Source: Alphaproteobacteria bacterium (GTDB lineage Bacteria; Pseudomonadota; Alphaproteobacteria; SP197). From it: 64,000 nt of DNA. Shown one piece after another: positions 7,186 through 15,944 of the stretch. The first letter of the stretch is position 1, and every line of letters starts with the position of its first letter. The position numbers were made by a program, and so were the translations under genes. Location: contig OZ219746.1 in the NCBI GenBank assembly GCA_964291265.2, positions 96,001-160,000 of the forward strand, given 5' to 3'. The notes under the pieces were generated by a model. The model ran no database searches and was not told the DNA's origin. It was given only the letters and a program-made list of their open reading frames with translations.

Positions 7186-7295
7186 GCAGGCACATGGGGT
7201 CGATTGCAAACTGTTCGGCTGCGGGGCAGGATTGGATGGCCGTCAACCGGGATTGTGCCCCATGCAGGCGGCGAGGGGAGGTCGAAGGGCACGGC

Positions 7296-8365
7296 ATGGC
7301 CAGGGGAACACCCAGGAAACAGCAAGGCGGCGCGTCAGCAGGGCGGGACAGCGGCGCGACGACCGGCCATGAGGCCGAGCTGCGGGCGATGGCCGATGCG
7401 CCGCGCGGCTCGACGGACGCGGCGGAATACAAGCATGTCGTTCCTGGCCTGATCTTCCTGAAATACATTTCCGACGCCTTCGAGGCGCGCCATGCGGCGG
7501 TGCTGGCCGAATGGGGCGTCGACGCCGCCGAGGACCGTGACGAAAACACGACCGAGAACATCTTCTGGGTGCCGCCGGACGCCCGCTCAGGGCATCTGAA
7601 GGAGCAGCGCGGCAGCCGACCGCGGGCCAGGCGGTGGACGAGGCGATGGCGGCGGTCGAGCGGGACCATCCCGCGCTCGAAGCCGTGCTGCCGAAGGACT
7701 ATGCCCGTCCGGCCCTCGACAAGCAGCGGCTCGGCCAGCTCATCGACATGATCGGCAACATCCGGGCAGGCGATGCGGAGGCCCGCTCGCGTGATGTGCT
7801 GGGCCGGATCTGCGAGTATCCTCTTCCGGTTCGCGAACGCCGAAGGCAAGAAGGGCGGCAAGTTCTACACTCCGCGCCGCGTCGTTCGGCTGCTGGTCGA
7901 GATGCTGGAGCCGTATCGGGGGCGGGTTTATGACCCGTGCTGCGGCTCGTCCGGCATGGTCGTGCAGTCGGTTGAATTCATCCGCGCCCATGCCACCGGC
8001 AACGGCAATGGCGGCAGGGCACACGGCGATATCTCCATCTGGGGTCAGGAATTCAACTACACGACATGGCGGCGAAGATGAACCTCGCCATCCGCGGCAT
8101 CGAAGGACGCATCGCCCATGGCGACGGCTTCCACAACGACCGCCACCCCGACCTCAAGGCCGACTTCATCCTCGCCAATCCGCCATTCAATGTGAAGGAC
8201 TGGGGCGGCGAACGTCTGGTCGACGACAGGCGCTGGCCATACGGGACCCTACCGCCGCGCAACGCCAACTTCGCCTGGGTGCAGAACATGGTCCACCATC
8301 TGGCGCCCGGCGGCACGGCGGGGATCGTGATCGCTGCTGAGAAGATAGTCGGAGAGGTTGCGTGA
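7296..8365 (+). pseudogene. hsdM: Type I RM modification subunit HsdM, frameshifted and truncated
   Basis: [34 protein letters not shown] and ILANPPFN are spread over several frames; C-terminal half missing. Confidence 0.88.
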
Positions 8366-8852
8366 CCGGCGGCTTGCTCACCGAACCAGATCGGAAGGAA
8401 GGACTGTCCCTGGTCTATGTCAAGGCACTGGCGGTGCGTGCGGGTTTTCTGACCACGGTGCCGGGGCCGGACCGCGACAGCGTCGACCTGCGGATTCAGG
8501 CGGGAGGTACATATCGCCCGGCCCTCGAGTTGCAGCTCAAGGCCACTGCCGGTTTCGACGGGCCGCGAAACGGCTTCTTGCCGTTTCGACTGCCTTTGAA
8601 GAACTACGGTAACTACTCACCCCCTACTGATGACGGATCGTTTTTCCTGACGGGTTCGGATTCGGCATTTTCTCTTGCCGCCTTCACTTGCTCGCTGCCG
8701 ATGATCGGATGTGCGTGTTCCGACTGACAAGAAGCGGATCGATCTTCGGCTTCAGCTCCACGTTCCGGCCTTACATAACCAGGTTTTGTCCCCGTGATGA
8801 TGCAATCATCCACAGCGGTTGGCTGCCTTTCCAATCCTCTGGAGATATGCGC

Positions 8853-8881
8853 TTGACATTGTAGGAGGGGCACTCTACATG
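8853..8881 (+). promoter_or_regulatory. Putative sigma70 promoter for the IS-borne methyltransferase-transposase operon
   Basis: TTGACA-N17-TACATG, conserved in the second copy (minus strand, ~12203-12231). Confidence 0.55.
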
Positions 8882-8912
8882 CAGGCCATCGGGGCGGTTT
8901 GCGTCGGAGATA

Positions 8913-9590
8913 TTGATGGCGGCATGGTACGGATCGAAGGCGACGACGGGTCTGAGCCAGGCGATCGTCGCGGCCATGCCGCCGCATGACGTGTACATCG
9001 AGGCGTTCCTTGGGGGCGGCGCGATCATGAAGCGCAAGCCACCGGCGCTGCGCAGCATCGGCATTGACCTCAACCGCCGGGCGATCGACAGCTTCCGCTG
9101 TGACTATCCGGTGGAGCTTCACCAAGGCTGCGCCCTGCGTTTTCTCGAGACCTTCGCCTTCCAGGGCCGCGAGCTGGTCTACTGCGACCCGCCTTACGTG
9201 CAGTCGACGCGCCGGTCGCAGCGCCGCTACCGCTTCGACTGCACGGACGATGACCATGTTGCGCTCCTCGACATCCTGACGTCGCTGCCCTGCCAGGTGA
9301 TGATCTCCGGCTATCCCTCGCGGCTCTACGACACGCACCTCACCGGCTGGCGCTCGGCCGAGGTCCAGGTCAACAACCAGGCCTGCGTTGTCACCGAGAA
9401 GCTGTGGTTCAACTTCGCACCGGGCCGACCGCACTGGCATACGTGTGCGGGCAGGAACTCGATCGACCGCCAGCGCATCAAGCGCCTCGCAGAGAGCTGG
9501 GCGCGGCGCTACCGGACGATGCCCGAAGGCGAGCGGCTCGCCGTGCTGGCGGCAGTCATGGCGGTGGAGGCGTCGTCATGGCGAGCGTGA
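8913..9590 (+). CDS. DNA adenine methyltransferase (D12/Dam-like), IS66 passenger
   Basis: Y-G-S-K N-terminus, YIEAFLGGGA SAM-binding motif, VYCDPPY catalytic motif. Confidence 0.88.
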   Translation: MMAAWYGSKATTGLSQAIVAAMPPHDVYIEAFLGGGAIMKRKPPALRSIGIDLNRRAIDSFRCDYPVELHQGCALRFLETFAFQGRELVYCDPPYVQSTRRSQRRYRFDCTDDDHVALLDILTSLPCQVMISGYPSRLYDTHLTGWRSAEVQVNNQACVVTEKLWFNFAPGRPHWHTCAGRNSIDRQRIKRLAESWARRYRTMPEGERLAVLAAVMAVEASSWRA

Positions 9591-10027
9591 ACGGCACGTC
9601 TGTGCGCCAGGAGGTCGACGTCTTCCAGAAGCAGTTCCAGGATCTCCGCAAGCAAGGCAAGGTCAACCAGGAGTGCGAGGAGCTCTTCCGCGGCCTGCTG
9701 ATGCTGATAAAGCTGTTGCTGACCGTGCTCATGGAGAAGATCACACGCAAGACGAGCCGGAACTCCGGTCTGCCGCCATCTCAGACTGACAAGGACGAGA
9801 GCGCGAGGCGCACCGGGAGCAACGGCAAGGGCCCGAAGCCGAACCAGCAGACGGGCGACAACCTGCGCACGACCACCGTCGAGGAGACGATCGTCGTTGA
9901 TGCCTGCGACGCCTGCGGCGCCGACCTCCACGACGTTGACCCCGTCGACCGGGAGTGCCGCGTCCTCTACGACATCGTGTTCGAAGTCGTCGAGCGCCGC
10001 GTCGAAGCCGAGATCAAGGGTAACTAC

Positions 10028-11506
10028 TCACCCCTTGTTAGGGTCTGGTTGTCCGTAGTGTTGGTTGAGGATGTCTACGGCCTTTCCGTCGAGGGCGATG
10101 TGGATGGCGACGTGAGGGTTGTAGCCGAGTGCGTCCATGGTGGTGAGGTAGCTTGAGCCGCGGCACCATGCTTTGGCGTGGGGCATGGTGCGGAAACATC
10201 CGGACACCTTGATCTTGACCTTTGTCATCCTGATCTTCTGCTCTCCGGTATTGTTGGTGAAACTGACGTTGGGGTCCTTCATGAAGCGCAGGACGGACTT
10301 CTCGTGTTTCACGAGACGTTCATGCAGGTTGTGCGCGTCGGACTTTGCGATGCGTCCACGTTTTCCTTTCGTCCGTGGCGGGATGTCGGGCAGTTCCTTG
10401 GCGCCCTGGGTGAGGATGGTGCGGTAGCGCTTGCGCACGGCCCGGCGGTCGGCCTCGTTCAAGGTCTTGGATGCGCTCTTGTTGACCCTGCGGGAGACCT
10501 CGCGCAGCAGGCTTTTCATCAGTCGCGCCCAGCGGTAGCCGTTGGACTCGACGACGAAGGTCAGTTCGCGCAGGAGATGGCTGCCGCACAGTTGGTGGCG
10601 GCATTGATCGTAGCCCATGTAGGCAGCCCAGCAGTCGTGGATCAGGACGCCCTTGTAGCGCGGGATGATGCCGATCTCTTCGATCGCCTCCCGGCCGCGC
10701 TTGGGGTGCGGGAACTTGCACGTCAGGGTGCCGTCGGTGACGACATGGAGCCATTGGGTCTTGCCGGCGACCCGGAAGCCGGTCTCGTCGACATGCAGGG
10801 CCGGTTGTTGCAGGAGATGGGCCACGGCGGCCTCCTCCCATGATGCGAGGGCATCGTGAAAGCGCCGGACATAGCCGAGGCAGGTCGCCTCGGAGAGCTT
10901 GATGCCGGAGATCGCGTGCACGAGCGAGACGGCACGACGCAGGGACAGCATCTGGGCGATCAGCAGGTTGATGACGAGGGCCTGGATGCTGACGCCGTAC
11001 TGCAGGGGGCCCGGCATGTTGTCTGGGAACCGGCCCTTGGTCCGGGCCCGGCACTTCGGGCATTCCTTGATCTCGGCTTCGACGCGGCGCTCGACGACTT
11101 CGAACACGATGTCGTAGAGGACGCGGCACTCCCGGTCGACGGGGTCGACATCGTGGAGGTCGGCGCCGCAGGCGTCGCAGGCATCGACGACGATCGTCTC
11201 CTCGATGGTGGTCGTGCGCAGGTTGTCGCCCGTCTGCTGGTTCGGTTTCGGGCCCTTGCCGTTGCTCCCGGTGCGCCTCGCGCTCTCGTCCTTGTCAGTC
11301 TGCGATGGCGGCAGACCGGAGTTCCGGCTTGTCTTACGTGTGATCTTCTCCATGAGCACGGTCAGCAACAGCTTTATCAGCATCAGCATGCCGCGGAAGA
11401 GCTCCTCGCACTCCTGGCTGACCTTGCCCTGCTTGCGGAGATCCTGGAACTGCTTCTGGAAGATGTCGGCCTCCTGGCGCACAGACGTGCCGTTCACGCT
11501 CGCCAT
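10028..11506 (-). CDS. IS66-family transposase (single-ORF type), intact, 492 aa
   Basis: Start MASVNG after a GGAGG RBS; SRNSGLPPS, CxxC...CxxC zinc finger, DDE motifs. Confidence 0.92.
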   Translation of the reverse strand: MASVNGTSVRQEADIFQKQFQDLRKQGKVSQECEELFRGMLMLIKLLLTVLMEKITRKTSRNSGLPPSQTDKDESARRTGSNGKGPKPNQQTGDNLRTTTIEETIVVDACDACGADLHDVDPVDRECRVLYDIVFEVVERRVEAEIKECPKCRARTKGRFPDNMPGPLQYGVSIQALVINLLIAQMLSLRRAVSLVHAISGIKLSEATCLGYVRRFHDALASWEEAAVAHLLQQPALHVDETGFRVAGKTQWLHVVTDGTLTCKFPHPKRGREAIEEIGIIPRYKGVLIHDCWAAYMGYDQCRHQLCGSHLLRELTFVVESNGYRWARLMKSLLREVSRRVNKSASKTLNEADRRAVRKRYRTILTQGAKELPDIPPRTKGKRGRIAKSDAHNLHERLVKHEKSVLRFMKDPNVSFTNNTGEQKIRMTKVKIKVSGCFRTMPHAKAWCRGSSYLTTMDALGYNPHVAIHIALDGKAVDILNQHYGQPDPNKG

Positions 11507-12171
11507 GACGACGCCTCCACCGCCATGACTGCCGCCAGCACGGCGAGCCGCTCGCCTTCGGGCATCGTCCGGTAGCGCCGCGCCCAGCTCTCTGCGAGGC
11601 GCTTGATGCGCTGGCGGTCGATCGAGTTCCTGCCCGCACACGTATGCCAGTGCGGTCGGCCCGGTGCGAAGTTGAACCACAGCTTCTCGGTGACAACGCA
11701 GGCCTGGTTGTTGACCTGGACCTCGGCCGAGCGCCAGCCGGCGAGGTGCGTGTCGTAGAGCCGCGAGGGATAGCCGGAGATCATCACCTGGCAGGGCAGC
11801 GACGTCAGGATGTCGAGGAGCGCAACATGGTCATCGTCCGTGCAGTCGAAGCGGTAGCGGCGCTGCGACCGGCGCGTCGACTGCACGTAAGGCGGGTCGC
11901 AGTAGACCAGCTCGCGGCCCTGGAAGGCGAAGGTCTCGAGAAAACGCAGGGCGCAGCCTTGGTGAAGCTCCACCGGATAGTCACAGCGGAAGGTGTCGAT
12001 CGCCCGGCGGTTGAGGTCAATGCCGATGCTGCGCAGCGCCGGTGGCTTGCGCTTCATGATCGCGCCGCCCCCAAGGAACGCCTCGATGTACACGTCATGC
12101 GGCGGCATGGCCGCGACGATCGCCTGGCTCAGACCCGTCGTCGCCTTCGATCCATACCATGCCGCCATCAA
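11494..12171 (-). CDS. DNA adenine methyltransferase, second copy
   Basis: Nearly identical to 8913-9590; DPPY motif. Confidence 0.88.
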   Translation of the reverse strand: MMAAWYGSKATTGLSQAIVAAMPPHDVYIEAFLGGGAIMKRKPPALRSIGIDLNRRAIDTFRCDYPVELHQGCALRFLETFAFQGRELVYCDPPYVQSTRRSQRRYRFDCTDDDHVALLDILTSLPCQVMISGYPSRLYDTHLAGWRSAEVQVNNQACVVTEKLWFNFAPGRPHWHTCAGRNSIDRQRIKRLAESWARRYRTMPEGERLAVLAAVMAVEASSWRA

Positions 12172-13789
12172 TATCTCCGACGCAAACCGCCCCGATGGCC
12201 AGCATGTAGAGTGCCCCTCCTACAATGTCAAGCGCATATCTCCAGAGGATTGGAAAGGCAGCCAACCGCTGTGGATGATTGCATCATCACGGGGACAAAA
12301 CCTGGCCATATAAGGCCGGAACGTGGAGCTGAAGACGAAGATCGATCCGCTTCTTGTCAGTCGGAACACGCACATCCGATCATCGGAAGCGAGCAAGTGA
12401 AGGCGGCAAGAGACAATGCCGGATTCGAACCCGTCAGGAAAAACGATCCGTCATCAGTAGGGGGTGAGTAGTTACGATCAAGGAATGTCCGAAGTGCCGG
12501 GCCCGGACCAAGGGCCGGTTCCCAGACAACATGCCGGGCCCCCTGCAGTACGGCGTCAGCATCCAGGCCCTCGTCATCAACCTGCTGATCGCCCAGATGC
12601 TGTCCCTGCGTCGTGCCGTCTCGCTCGTGCACGCGATCTCCGGCATCAAGCTCTCCGAGGCGACCTGCCTCGGCTATGTCCGGCGCTTTCACGATGCCCT
12701 CGCATCATGGGAGGAGGCCGCCGTGGCCCATCTCCTGCAACAACCGGCCCTGCATGTCGACGAGACCGGCTTCCGGGTCGCCGGCAAGACCCAATGGCTC
12801 CATGTCGTCACCGACGGCACCCTGACGTGCAAGTTCCCGCACCCCAAGCGCGGCCGGGAGGCGATCGAAGAGATCGGCATCATCCCGCGCTACAAGGGCG
12901 TCCTGATCCACGACTGCTGGGCTGCCTACATGGGCTACGATCAATGCCGCCACCAACTGTGCGGCAGCCATCTCCTGCGCGAACTGACCTTCGTCGTCGA
13001 GTCCAACGGCTACCGCTGGGCGCGACTGATGAAAAGCCTGCTGCGCGAGGTCTCCCGCAGGGTCAACAAGAGCGCATCCAAGACCTTGAACGAGGCCGAC
13101 CGCCGGGCCGTGCGCAAGCGCTACCGCACCATCCTCACCCAGGGCGCCAAGGAACTGCCCGACATCCCGCCACGGACGAAAGGAAAACGGGGACGCATCG
13201 CAAAGTCCGACGCGCACAACCTGCATGAACGTCTCGTGAAACACGAGAAGTCCGTCCTGCGCTTCATGAAGGACCCCAATGTCAGTTTCACAAATAATAC
13301 CGGAGAGCAGAAGATCAGGATGACAAAGGTCAAGATCAAGGTGTCCGGATGTTTCCGCACCATGCCCCACGCCAAAGCATGGTGCCGCGGCTCAAGCTAC
13401 CTCACCACCATGGACGCACTCGGCTACAACCCTCACGTCGCCATCCACATCGCCCTCGACGGAAAGGCCGTAGACATCCTCAACCAGCACTACGGACAAC
13501 CAGACCCTAACAAGGGGTGAGTAGTTACGAACTACGAGGATCTTCGTGTTGTTACGCAGACGCCACGGTTGCTCGTGGTGCTGGAGCTTCCCGAAGACGA
13601 AGCGCACTGGATGTCGGTGACTGAGGATGCTCTCATTCTGCGATATCGCGCGTACTGGCTGAGCTTGCAACGGGGCCATGATGACGTCACCGGTCGGAAG
13701 ACCGTCACGGTTCATGTCCCTGAACGCAACATACTCGATGTTGAGACCCTACAAGAGCTCATGGAGCAATCCAGGACGGGAGAACTCTG

Positions 13790-14935
13790 ATGCAGGTCAG
13801 CATTCAAGACCGTGACGCCTTGCTGGCGATTTCGCCGGCGGCGTTGTCCGCCTACGCTCGATGCGCGGGTTGGAGCCGCGGTGATTCGTACCGCGAGCAC
13901 TCGGAAATCTATGTTGGCGAAGCGCTGCCGGAAATCGTCTTGCCGCTCAACACGAGCCTCGGAGATTATGCGAGTGCGGTGGTGGCATTGATCGAGACCT
14001 TCGCGCAGGTCGCTGATCAGGACGCGTTGACCGTGTACCGTGCGCTGACGACAGCGGACCGGGATGCGATTCGTGTTCGGGCGGCGGAGAGCGATGAAGG
14101 CAGCCTGGGACTGAACGACGGCGTGGCCCTGATTGAAGGCGCCAGCGCCATGGTGCTGGCGGCGGCGTGCTCGCTTCAGGACCCGCGGCCGGTGTACCGC
14201 GCTGGCGCGAACCGGGAGGCGGCAGACATGCTGCAGCAGATGCGGCTTGGGCAGACGGAGCAAGGCAGCTTCGTTGTGACGTTGCTCACACCGCCTGTGC
14301 CACCCCCCATGTCGACGCTGTTCGACGATGAGGCCACGGGTGACCATAATGCGCCGATCTTTCGTCGGATGACGAAACGGCTTGTCGAGGCGCTGGCCGC
14401 GGTGCGGCGGGCGGCGGAGCGGGCGGGTTCCGGCGATGGCAGCGCCTTCGCAGAGTCAGTGGCCAGCGGGGTGAGCGCCAATCTGTGCGAGGCATTGATC
14501 AAGATCATCGCACCGTTCCCGAGGCTGGATATCAGCGTCTTGTGGGCGCGGACGCGGCCGGTGAAGAGGGCGTCACCACCGGTTTCCTGGTTCGGGCTGG
14601 CGGATGTCGCATTGCTGGACGAGGCCGCCCGATCCCTGCGGGAGCGTGCGCCGAAGCCCGACATGCATCTCCATGGCTTCATTCGCATCCTGGAACGCAC
14701 AGAGGAAGAGGCAGATGGGACAATCAGGTTCCGCGCCGAAGTAGACGGAAAATGGCAGTCGGTCGCGGCGGTTCTGGAACAGGCCGATTACGAGCGCGCG
14801 GTTCAGGCCCACAAGGACCGGGCACCGGTCATACTCAAGGGTGACCTCGAGCGCACAGGTCAGCGATGGAAGCTGCTGAACCCCCAACTGGAGAGTGTCC
14901 TGCGCGATGATGAAGAGGACCCGGAGTATGGTTGA
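13790..14935 (+). CDS. Hypothetical protein (381 aa) translationally coupled to the DUF4365-like gene
   Basis: TGATG stop/start overlap at 13788-13792; long ORF with no motif I can assign. Confidence 0.75.
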   Translation: MQVSIQDRDALLAISPAALSAYARCAGWSRGDSYREHSEIYVGEALPEIVLPLNTSLGDYASAVVALIETFAQVADQDALTVYRALTTADRDAIRVRAAESDEGSLGLNDGVALIEGASAMVLAAACSLQDPRPVYRAGANREAADMLQQMRLGQTEQGSFVVTLLTPPVPPPMSTLFDDEATGDHNAPIFRRMTKRLVEALAAVRRAAERAGSGDGSAFAESVASGVSANLCEALIKIIAPFPRLDISVLWARTRPVKRASPPVSWFGLADVALLDEAARSLRERAPKPDMHLHGFIRILERTEEEADGTIRFRAEVDGKWQSVAAVLEQADYERAVQAHKDRAPVILKGDLERTGQRWKLLNPQLESVLRDDEEDPEYG

Positions 14936-15291
14936 GCTCGCCGGCGATACTGACGCGGCCGTTTCCGAGAGGTGGTGCCTTCTCCGGGAATATGACGAGA
15001 ACCAACGGAAAGGCCGTCCGGCGTGAAACCGGCTTAGCGGTGCGATCGAGTATCTGAAACGCGCTCTCGTGGCGAGAAGCGAGGCATCGCCGCTATCCGG
15101 AAACCGGCGAGACGGTACCTTGGATGCTATCGTCGATAACATCGAGCAACCCATGGCCGGCGAACCGCTCTTTCACAGTTGTGAGGAGAAACCGTAACTG
15201 ATGCCCGCCCCAGCAGGGCCTATCTTTTGTCCGCTTTCGTCCGGCAAGGGGCGATGCAGGCAGATCTGGGTGCGCCAGGGATTGGACTGCG

Positions 15292-15834
15292 TTGTCGATA
15301 TGCCGGTTCCGACCTCGAGAAGGCGCCACCGACTTCAAGAACGGTCACTCTGCCGCGGTGGTCCGCCGCCGATCGCGACAAGAGAATGCTCCTGCCCGTC
15401 CCAGAAACAGAAGCAATTCTTGATGTACTCTGCGCGCCGGTCGAGCCGGACCGGCACGGACGCCGTTTCCGCTGCCGGACCGCCTTCCGCGAAGCGCGCG
15501 AACAACTCCCGGTAGTGGAGTACGGCGGGCCCGAGCGCCACGGCTGCCTCCGCGGCTTCCGACGGACCAGCCGGGGGCCGCACCGCCTCGGCTGCGATGA
15601 CGGCCTCGTCGCGCGGCCGCACCTCCATCGGATAAGTGCCGAGATGGAACGGCCGGTTCTTCGATGCGCGGTGGAACAGCATGGCCCCGCCGCCCGCCCG
15701 GCTGTCAACCGTAACGCTTGGCGGTCACGATGTCAGGACCATGCTGTTGTCGCGATCGGCGGTGGATTACCGGGTCAGAGGCCGTTCTTGAAGTGGGTGG
15801 CGCCTTCTCGAGGTCGGAACCGGCATATCGACAA
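15292..15834. repeat. ~100-bp imperfect inverted repeat pair (arms ~15292-15394 and ~15734-15834)
   Basis: TTGTCGATATGCCGGTTCCGACCTCGAGAAGGCGCCACC...TTCAAGAACGG...CCGCCGATCGCGACAA occurs once on each strand. Confidence 0.85.
15335..15682 (-). pseudogene. Truncated N-terminal fragment resembling a catabolic reductive dehalogenase
   Basis: N-terminus MLFHRASKNRPFHLGTYPME resembles the RPxHLGxxP start of catabolic RdhA-type proteins; ORF runs into the repeat arm. Confidence 0.45.
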
Positions 15835-15944
15835 TGAAAACCGGTCCCTTGTGCCTGATCGGCGCTGAAACTTCGGTTTGGTGCTCCGGCTGTCACCAAC
15901 CGGATTCTTGCCGGCAGGACCGCTTGGCGGTGTCATGCAGGCCT

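Follow-up and report, generated by a model that had tools for sequence, protein, structure and literature searches.

Why does an IS66-family insertion sequence (IS) place a gene resembling a DNA adenine methyltransferase directly ahead of its transposase gene? The question is raised by two 2456-bp copies of such an element in a 64,000-nt stretch of contig OZ219746.1 (positions 96,001–160,000; assembly GCA_964291265.2, an alphaproteobacterium of the lineage SP197), hereafter the window. The methylase-like gene is likely an off-switch, given that it encodes a relative of the plasmid protein Upf31 and lies behind a conserved promoter palindrome. By analogy with Upf31, on which the expectations of DNA binding, dimerization and repression are modelled, we consider it probable that the gene is an exchangeable autorepressor module which throttles the transposase.

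The coding strand of the element holds only two long open reading frames (ORFs). The first is PF02086-like and the second encodes an IS66 TnpC (PF03050, 145 bits against a cut-off of 23.1; NF033517, 250.9 bits against a cut-off of 180). A first-pass annotation, made from the sequence, had described a TTGACA-N17-TACATG promoter followed by a DPPY methyltransferase gene that overlaps the transposase start by 13 bp, and both features were recovered, with the stop of the methylase-like gene running 13 bp past the tnpC ATG (position 9578 in the outer copy). Because stop and start overlap, the two genes would be expected to share one transcript that yields both proteins.

The methylase-like protein is 224 aa long, with motif I at residue 29, DPPY at residues 91–94 and a helical C-terminal domain, and it presents S-adenosylmethionine (SAM)-binding motifs and DPPY on a Rossmann-type fold. 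An AlphaFold2 model (mean predicted local distance difference test score, pLDDT, of 84.5) consists of a methyltransferase core followed by two helices, and its top Foldseek matches were RlmLK and E. coli Dam at 13–18% identity; a sequence search of solved structures with the protein returned two spurious tetratricopeptide repeat matches and nothing else. Since only 62 residues, containing all core elements, separate motif I from DPPY, there is no room for a target-recognition domain (TRD). A distance of about 60 residues was found in 83 of 122 measurable distant relatives. The gene is under purifying constraint by dN/dS, which was 0.17–0.41 in all eight comparisons with relatives and lower than that of the transposase in each of four paired cases. 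Upf31-like domains were also seen fused to longer proteins (P0175, P0217 and P0247), two of these fusions resembling C5-cytosine methyltransferase domains by eye.

A predicted operator in the shared promoter

Full-length Upf31 of an IncP-1β plasmid (L081), whose residue numbering agrees with that of PMC11997246, is identical to the window protein at 92 of 220 positions (42%, E = 2e-60), with the C-terminal domain included. In the published work Upf31 lowered the output of its own promoter from 4.76 to 0.09 XylE units, and each of the substitutions Y180A, F185A and W198A abolished repression (PMC11997246). No methylation was detected with DpnI/MboI or by real-time sequencing of single molecules (SMRT), the latter using an expression plasmid under isopropyl-thiogalactoside (IPTG) induction in methylase-free E. 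coli (PMC11997246). The authors proposed an inverted repeat in the promoter as the Upf31 operator and dimerization through the C-terminal domain, and predicted that this domain binds KorB (PMC11997246). The tested promoter carries ATCG-N10-CGAT 2 bp after its −35 element (supplementary Fig. S7 of PMC11997246).

A palindrome of matching placement and spacing lies in the promoter of the window element (Table 1). This promoter was missed by a promoter scan because its −10 element lacks the final (−7) T. The same T is absent from 18 of 22 genome-derived promoters, mostly alphaproteobacterial, as against 4 of 72 metagenome-derived ones. A −10 without it fits a promoter type reported for Alphaproteobacteria (PMC7703639), which suggests that the window promoter still works.

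For a survey of the putative operator, TTGAC served as the anchor for upstream sequences at 169 loci, with the palindrome left out of account; 162 loci could be anchored and gave 97 distinct 36-mers. The motif RTAG-N10-CTAY, starting 2 bp past the −35 hexamer, was present in 74 of these 97 promoters, and the five dyad pairs were 83% complementary at the true centre as against 10–34% at shifted centres. The half-sites covary between clades, being TAG/CTA in one and TCG/CGA in the other, and ATCG-N10-CGAT occupies the same place in the promoters of two distant genome matches. Plasmid homologues from Acinetobacter and Shewanella have two to four tandem ATAG-N10-CTAT-type sites upstream. Across nine plasmid and phage loci a spacer of 10 gave 20 dyads, compared with 3–12 for other spacers, and five of the nine have at least two such sites close upstream of the gene.

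In the proposed mechanism, the protein would dimerize through its C-terminal helices, and the dimer would bind both half-sites of the palindrome and block RNA polymerase on the shared promoter, so limiting the output of repressor and transposase alike. Entry into a host free of repressor would be followed by a burst of transposase, and repressor made by any copy would damp them all, a way of feeding copy number back on expression.

Three further placements of the palindrome were considered and rejected. TAG-N10-CTA occurs once in the whole element, at the promoter, which rules out an operator in the terminal inverted repeats (TIRs), the IS ends being where the first-pass annotation had suggested looking for the methylated motif. 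A host regulon was set aside, as the excess of the 38 RTAG-N10-CTAY sites in the genome over other spacings (1–18) consists mostly of IS copies. Five genome sites that resembled a second promoter fall within a repeated coding region. A repeated coding stretch of about 1 kb with internal 270-bp repeats, fibronectin-III-like by eye, was observed at six G000:C2 loci (745223, 2410348, 3116271, 3327732, 3490780 and 3927461).

Copies of the element and spread of the module

A TIR scan found 16 copies of the 2456-bp element in its own genome, a count of end-to-end copies that leaves out partial and decayed ones. Target-site duplications (TSDs) are exact over 8 bp in 15 of the 16 and match at 7 of 8 bp in the other. 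The promoter and the methylase-like gene are present in every copy, the gene being intact in 12 and split by later insertions in four; in 10 copies both genes are intact. Among nine genome copies, variants of the gene comprise 12 synonymous and five non-synonymous changes. The claim of the first-pass annotation that the gene travels as a component of the IS thus holds across the genome, where copies lacking it would have spoken against it. The element is a real, recently multiplied and active single-transposase IS66.

A second family in the same genome, of about 2442 bp and identical layout, encodes a methylase-like protein 62% identical and a transposase 33% identical to those of the first. 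One shared frameshift interrupts its methylase-like gene in five of six end-to-end copies; four of the frameshifted copies have their own 8–9-bp duplications, three have a 513-aa transposase and two are mutually identical. Since this family spread with a frameshifted gene, an intact gene is dispensable in cis for spread; intact protein could still have been supplied by other copies. A leader piece of the element (positions 160–218) also recurs apart from full copies, as stretches of 45–59 bp at 97% identity (G000:C2 2591490, 2596610, 2670788, 3034829 and 4177121).

Within the window, the two 2456-bp copies with perfect 8-bp TSDs and intact methylase-like ORFs reported at 8609–13528 are present. 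The structure was therefore described correctly; what the description did not mention is that one copy sits inside the transposase gene of the other, as a result of which the outer transposase is split and its reading frame ends after 192 aa. Inner and outer copies differ at 31 positions, and a contig from one public run joins position 8600 to 13529 with a single 8-bp target, representing the empty site.

Table 1. Positions in the window of the two nested IS66 copies, their genes, control sequences and target.
Feature	Position	Strand	Remarks
Outer IS66 copy, left part	8609..10019	+	left TIR, promoter, methylase-like gene, tnpC codons 1-147
Outer IS66 copy, right part	12484..13528	+	remaining tnpC, right TIR
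Inner IS66 copy, complete	10020..12475	-	2456 bp; identical copy on other contig
Outer TSD GAACTACG, left copy	8601..8608	+	exact 8-bp
Outer TSD GAACTACG, right copy	13529..13536	+	exact 8-bp
Inner TSD GATCAAGG, left copy	10012..10019	+	exact 8-bp
Inner TSD GATCAAGG, right copy	12476..12483	+	exact 8-bp
Outer left TIR	8609..8623	+	15 bp, perfect
Outer right TIR	13514..13528	-	15 bp, perfect
Inner left TIR	12461..12475	-	15 bp, perfect
Inner right TIR	10020..10034	+	15 bp, perfect
Predicted sigma70 promoter, outer copy	8853..8881	+	-35 TTGACA 8853-8858, 17-bp spacer, -10 TACATG 8876-8881
Predicted operator, outer copy	8860..8879	.	perfect TGTAG-N10-CTACA; left half adjoins -35, right half on -10
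Predicted promoter, inner copy	12203..12231	-	predicted operator inside at 12205-12224
Methylase-like (Upf31-like, Dam-fold) gene, outer copy	8916..9590	+	224 aa, intact
Methylase-like (Upf31-like, Dam-fold) gene, inner copy	11494..12168	-	224 aa, intact
tnpC, inner copy, intact	10028..11506	-	492 aa; start overlaps upstream gene by 13 bp
tnpC, outer copy, 5' part	9578..10019	+	split by inner copy; 3' part 12484-13520
Target gene, 5' part	8362..8608	+	PDC-M02A / DUF4365-like ORF broken by outer insertion
Target gene, 3' part	13537..13790	+	PDC-M02A-like

At window 8362–14935, the nested pair breaks a PDC-M02A-like gene, directly after which lies an intact PDC-M02B-like gene; the PDC-M02 pair is a PADLOC candidate anti-phage system. 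Just upstream (window 7204–8365) an HsdM-like type I methyltransferase gene is found in several frameshifted pieces, and together these fragments and the PDC-M02 pair suggest a decaying defence island. Long imperfect inverted repeats, with arms of 78 and 47 nt and centres of 340–430 bp, occupy window positions 15272–15854.

Neighbouring genes were surveyed for the best 80 of 442 genome matches (17 genomes by record title) and the best 80 of 548 metagenome matches, using reference proteins for sorting that were taken from the surveyed loci themselves. An IS66 transposase gene is next in 76 of the former. Of the latter, 65 are followed by an IS66 transposase, two by an IS4-like and two by an IS701-like transposase and one by an Ogg-type glycosylase, the remainder comprising three unassigned neighbours, six loci that were too short and one that was unassigned. 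The overlaps between the gene and tnpC are −4 or −13. Six IS66 transposase lineages with the module share at most 35% identity, two of them interleaving on a protein tree of a quick kind. In lineages T1, T3 and T4, as well as in an IS4-like element (L117), the gene lies between TIRs that are flanked by target duplications; the automatic TIR finder reached a boundary with a duplication of at least 7 bp for part of 167 loci, many of the contigs being short. No enclosing TIRs were confirmed for the IS701-like neighbours (L105 and L138) or for lineages T5 and T6 (L155 and L112), and for this reason those transposases may be later insertions. In the 3.2-kb T3 elements, a convergent tnpB (PF05717) and a tnpA-like ORF lie opposite the gene and tnpC (e.g. 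L025:7318-7994), a layout that has the appearance of a rearranged classical IS66.

The gene was found in three of 401 genomes of a phylum-wide sample, its own included, and in seven of 41 relatives, a patchy distribution as for a mobile element. Stand-alone homologues occur in plasmids (189 records). Judged from these sequence contexts, the promoter–operator–gene unit appears to be an exchangeable module shared among transposase lineages, not a one-off cargo.

Two other settings were noted. At L087, L088 and L147 there is no transposase, and the gene immediately behind the module encodes an Ogg-HhH glycosylase, a nitroreductase-like gene adjoining in L087; the module may control other cargo operons. 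In the P2-like phages L176, L177 and L178 (Klebsiella phage 3LV2017) a homologue follows the replication gene; that of L178 is missing the C-terminal domain, and a CACGG-N10-CCGTG dyad lies upstream of it.

Repression, methylation and the transposase

Several observations weigh against autorepression as the role of the protein. Two of the three aromatic residues that Upf31 needs are absent, the window protein having C177, S182 and W195 in place of Y180, F185 and W198. Serine at the F185 position occurs in none of 117 scored close homologues, 89 of which have Phe, while the Trp is kept in 115 of 117; Ser182 is shared by L001, L002 and each of the 15 genome copies that were matched. Given that Cys177 and Ser182 replace residues required by Upf31, the window lineage may repress weakly, and this could relate to its expansion. 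The operator survey has its own weaknesses. Loci entered it according to how similar they were to the query, a bias towards the IS clade, the strict RTAG-N10-CTAY motif is absent from 23 of the 97 promoters, and a clear site is lacking in four of the nine plasmid and phage loci. Conservation of the palindrome is partly promoter-driven, because the TA of its right half-site doubles as −10 element, and covariation at the outer pair (55 A–T, 15 G–C and 27 unpaired) comes from sequences that are related to one another. Finally, DPPY is kept in 110 of 120 close homologues and in 141 of the 146 distant representatives whose sequence extends over it (taken from the 150 best among 8926 matches), and the SAM-binding motifs are kept as well as DPPY, which would be odd for a pure DNA binder.

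In a rival reading the protein would be an active methylase of its own operator, a private Dam whose dimer would methylate a base such as the adenine at −11, silencing a promoter that is briefly reopened after replication or transfer. The catalytic motifs are near-invariant across the family, A is present at −11 in 96 of the 97 promoters with the mirror T in 93, and control of the IS10 transposase promoter by host Dam is established (PMC4659465). The promoter, however, needs the −11 A regardless, and the CACGG-N10-CCGTG dyad of one phage homologue has no adenine at that position. The negative SMRT result for Upf31 was obtained with an expression plasmid in methylase-free E. coli, where copies of a long operator may have been all but lacking. 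E. coli K-12 MG1655 contains 151 ATCG-N10-CGAT and 21 CATCG-N10-CGATG sites. If the test strain was a close K-12 derivative, as we presume, methylation of the short core would probably have been detectable and only a longer site would have escaped. Repression by Upf31 was also lost through mutation of the C-terminal domain, with no catalytic mutant in the passages of PMC11997246 that were consulted. On balance we regard operator methylation as unlikely. Equally speculative is its extension to the whole module, a swappable cassette of promoter, bipartite operator and TRD-less Dam-fold protein recruited by several IS lineages, plasmids and phages, each clade having its own operator. If such a protein methylated its own operator alone, the cassette would be a private, heritable epigenetic switch tying transposase output to replication, entry into a new host and copy number; we give this a low probability.

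Among the roles raised by the first-pass annotation is that of a cargo gene for an adenine methylase, of ordinary or relaxed specificity, which would shield the element or the host's DNA against restriction or alter the methylome; we judge this improbable. The protein does match PF02086 above cut-off (34.6 bits against 22) and PADLOC type II methylase models, Dam is among its top fold matches, its motifs are intact, and homologues are also carried by conjugative plasmids and P2-like phages. The Pfam match, however, spans residues 82–123 only, and the Dam NCBIfam model scores 38, far under its cut-off of 115. The protein has no TRD of the Dam kind, genome-wide methylation was not seen with its 42%-identical relative Upf31 when induced with IPTG (PMC11997246), and a cargo methylase leaves the conserved operator unexplained. 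The description of the gene product as an ordinary active adenine methylase is consequently not upheld, nor are restriction protection and alteration of the host methylome; of the roles suggested for it, regulation of transposition is the likeliest, in line with repression by Upf31 of its own promoter.

It is similarly doubtful that the protein has the transposase or transpososome as its main target, in replacement of TnpA and TnpB, or that the module is a strong self-limiting promoter whose protein has no real effect on jumping. Translational coupling to tnpC through the short overlaps would suit a partner of the transposase, as would the predicted binding of KorB by the C-terminal domain of Upf31. 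Against this, the gene also accompanies unrelated transposases as well as genes of other kinds (Ogg-HhH), tnpB persists in one lineage that carries the gene, the palindrome is not in the TIRs, and copies with a broken gene have spread, though other copies could supply the protein. Both this explanation and cargo methylation explain less than autorepression does. The shared promoter, operator and coupling argue against the gene being a passenger, and the spread of broken-gene copies shows it to be dispensable in cis. Being upstream, coupled, under selection and widely shared, it may well belong to the transposition module instead of being a passenger.

Relation to known systems

Dedicated repressors encoded by insertion sequences are known in few cases, and the regulation of IS66 elements has been little studied. 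If the methylase-like gene is an autorepressor, the thousands of genes that bear the annotation DNA adenine methylase (3237 clusters matched) would include a family of operator-binding regulators, the dozens of active IS copies in symbiont-type genomes would have a possible explanation, and the family would offer a source of orthogonal repressor–operator pairs. A small IS would then also provide a clean two-gene system for asking whether Upf31-family proteins bind DNA or also mark it. No description of an Upf31-type gene inside an IS was found in the literature as judged by titles and the beginnings of abstracts, a scope outside which ISfinder and subscription papers fall, and the word 'transposase' occurs 0 times in the main text of the Upf31 paper (PMC11997246). 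The present analysis adds four points: the predicted operator matches that proposed for Upf31 exactly in position, with half-sites that differ by clade; copies with a broken gene have spread; counts of sites limit how far the negative SMRT result reaches; and the window protein deviates at Ser182.

Classical IS66 elements carry tnpA and tnpB upstream of tnpC, and the window element has neither. The contrast drawn in the first-pass annotation stands to that extent and is weaker than it was stated, since the single-ORF ISBst12 group is known and one gene-bearing lineage keeps tnpB. With members of this group such as ISDge4 (PMC12898284) the window element shares TnpC, the lack of tnpA and tnpB, a GTAACT start of the TIR and an 8-bp duplication, and by gene content and TIR resemblance to ISDge4 it can be classed as an IS66 of ISBst12 type. 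The group is described as single-ORF (PMC12898284), whereas the window element adds a conserved upstream gene with a predicted operator. Transporter ISs of the IS1595 and IS66 families (10.1101/2021.05.26.445724) likewise have an extra gene inside the TIRs. In the window element, in contrast, that gene precedes the transposase gene and is coupled to it, is selected as strongly and is common to many lineages.

Among the relatives of the protein, Upf31 (pBP136 and R751) shares the 224-aa length, the Dam-like core and the helical C-terminal domain, and its promoter palindrome has the same offset from the −35 element and the same 10-bp spacer as those of the IS promoters. The half-sites differ, being TCG/CGA in the Upf31 operator and TAG/CTA in that of the IS, and Upf31 is a stand-alone plasmid backbone gene on the KorB circuit whereas the IS protein is encoded before a transposase. 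The Dam/DpnM alpha-class N6-adenine methyltransferases (PF02086) have the fold, the motif order, the SAM-binding motifs and DPPY in common with the window protein, which is only 13–15% identical to E. coli Dam in the fold search; they place a TRD between motifs III and IV, while the window protein has none and adds the C-terminal helical domain. M.SsoII and M.Ecl18kI (PMC2760811) offer a precedent for a methyltransferase that, bound to an operator, obstructs RNA polymerase on the promoter of its own gene, as proposed here, but they are C5-cytosine methyltransferases from restriction systems, bind DNA through a separate domain and have a proven genome-wide activity. Control of IS10 and Tn5 by Dam (PMC4659465) similarly places an adenine-methylase-type protein at a transposase promoter. 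There the methylase is encoded by the host, whereas the window element encodes its own protein, and the site on which that protein would act is a long bipartite palindrome.

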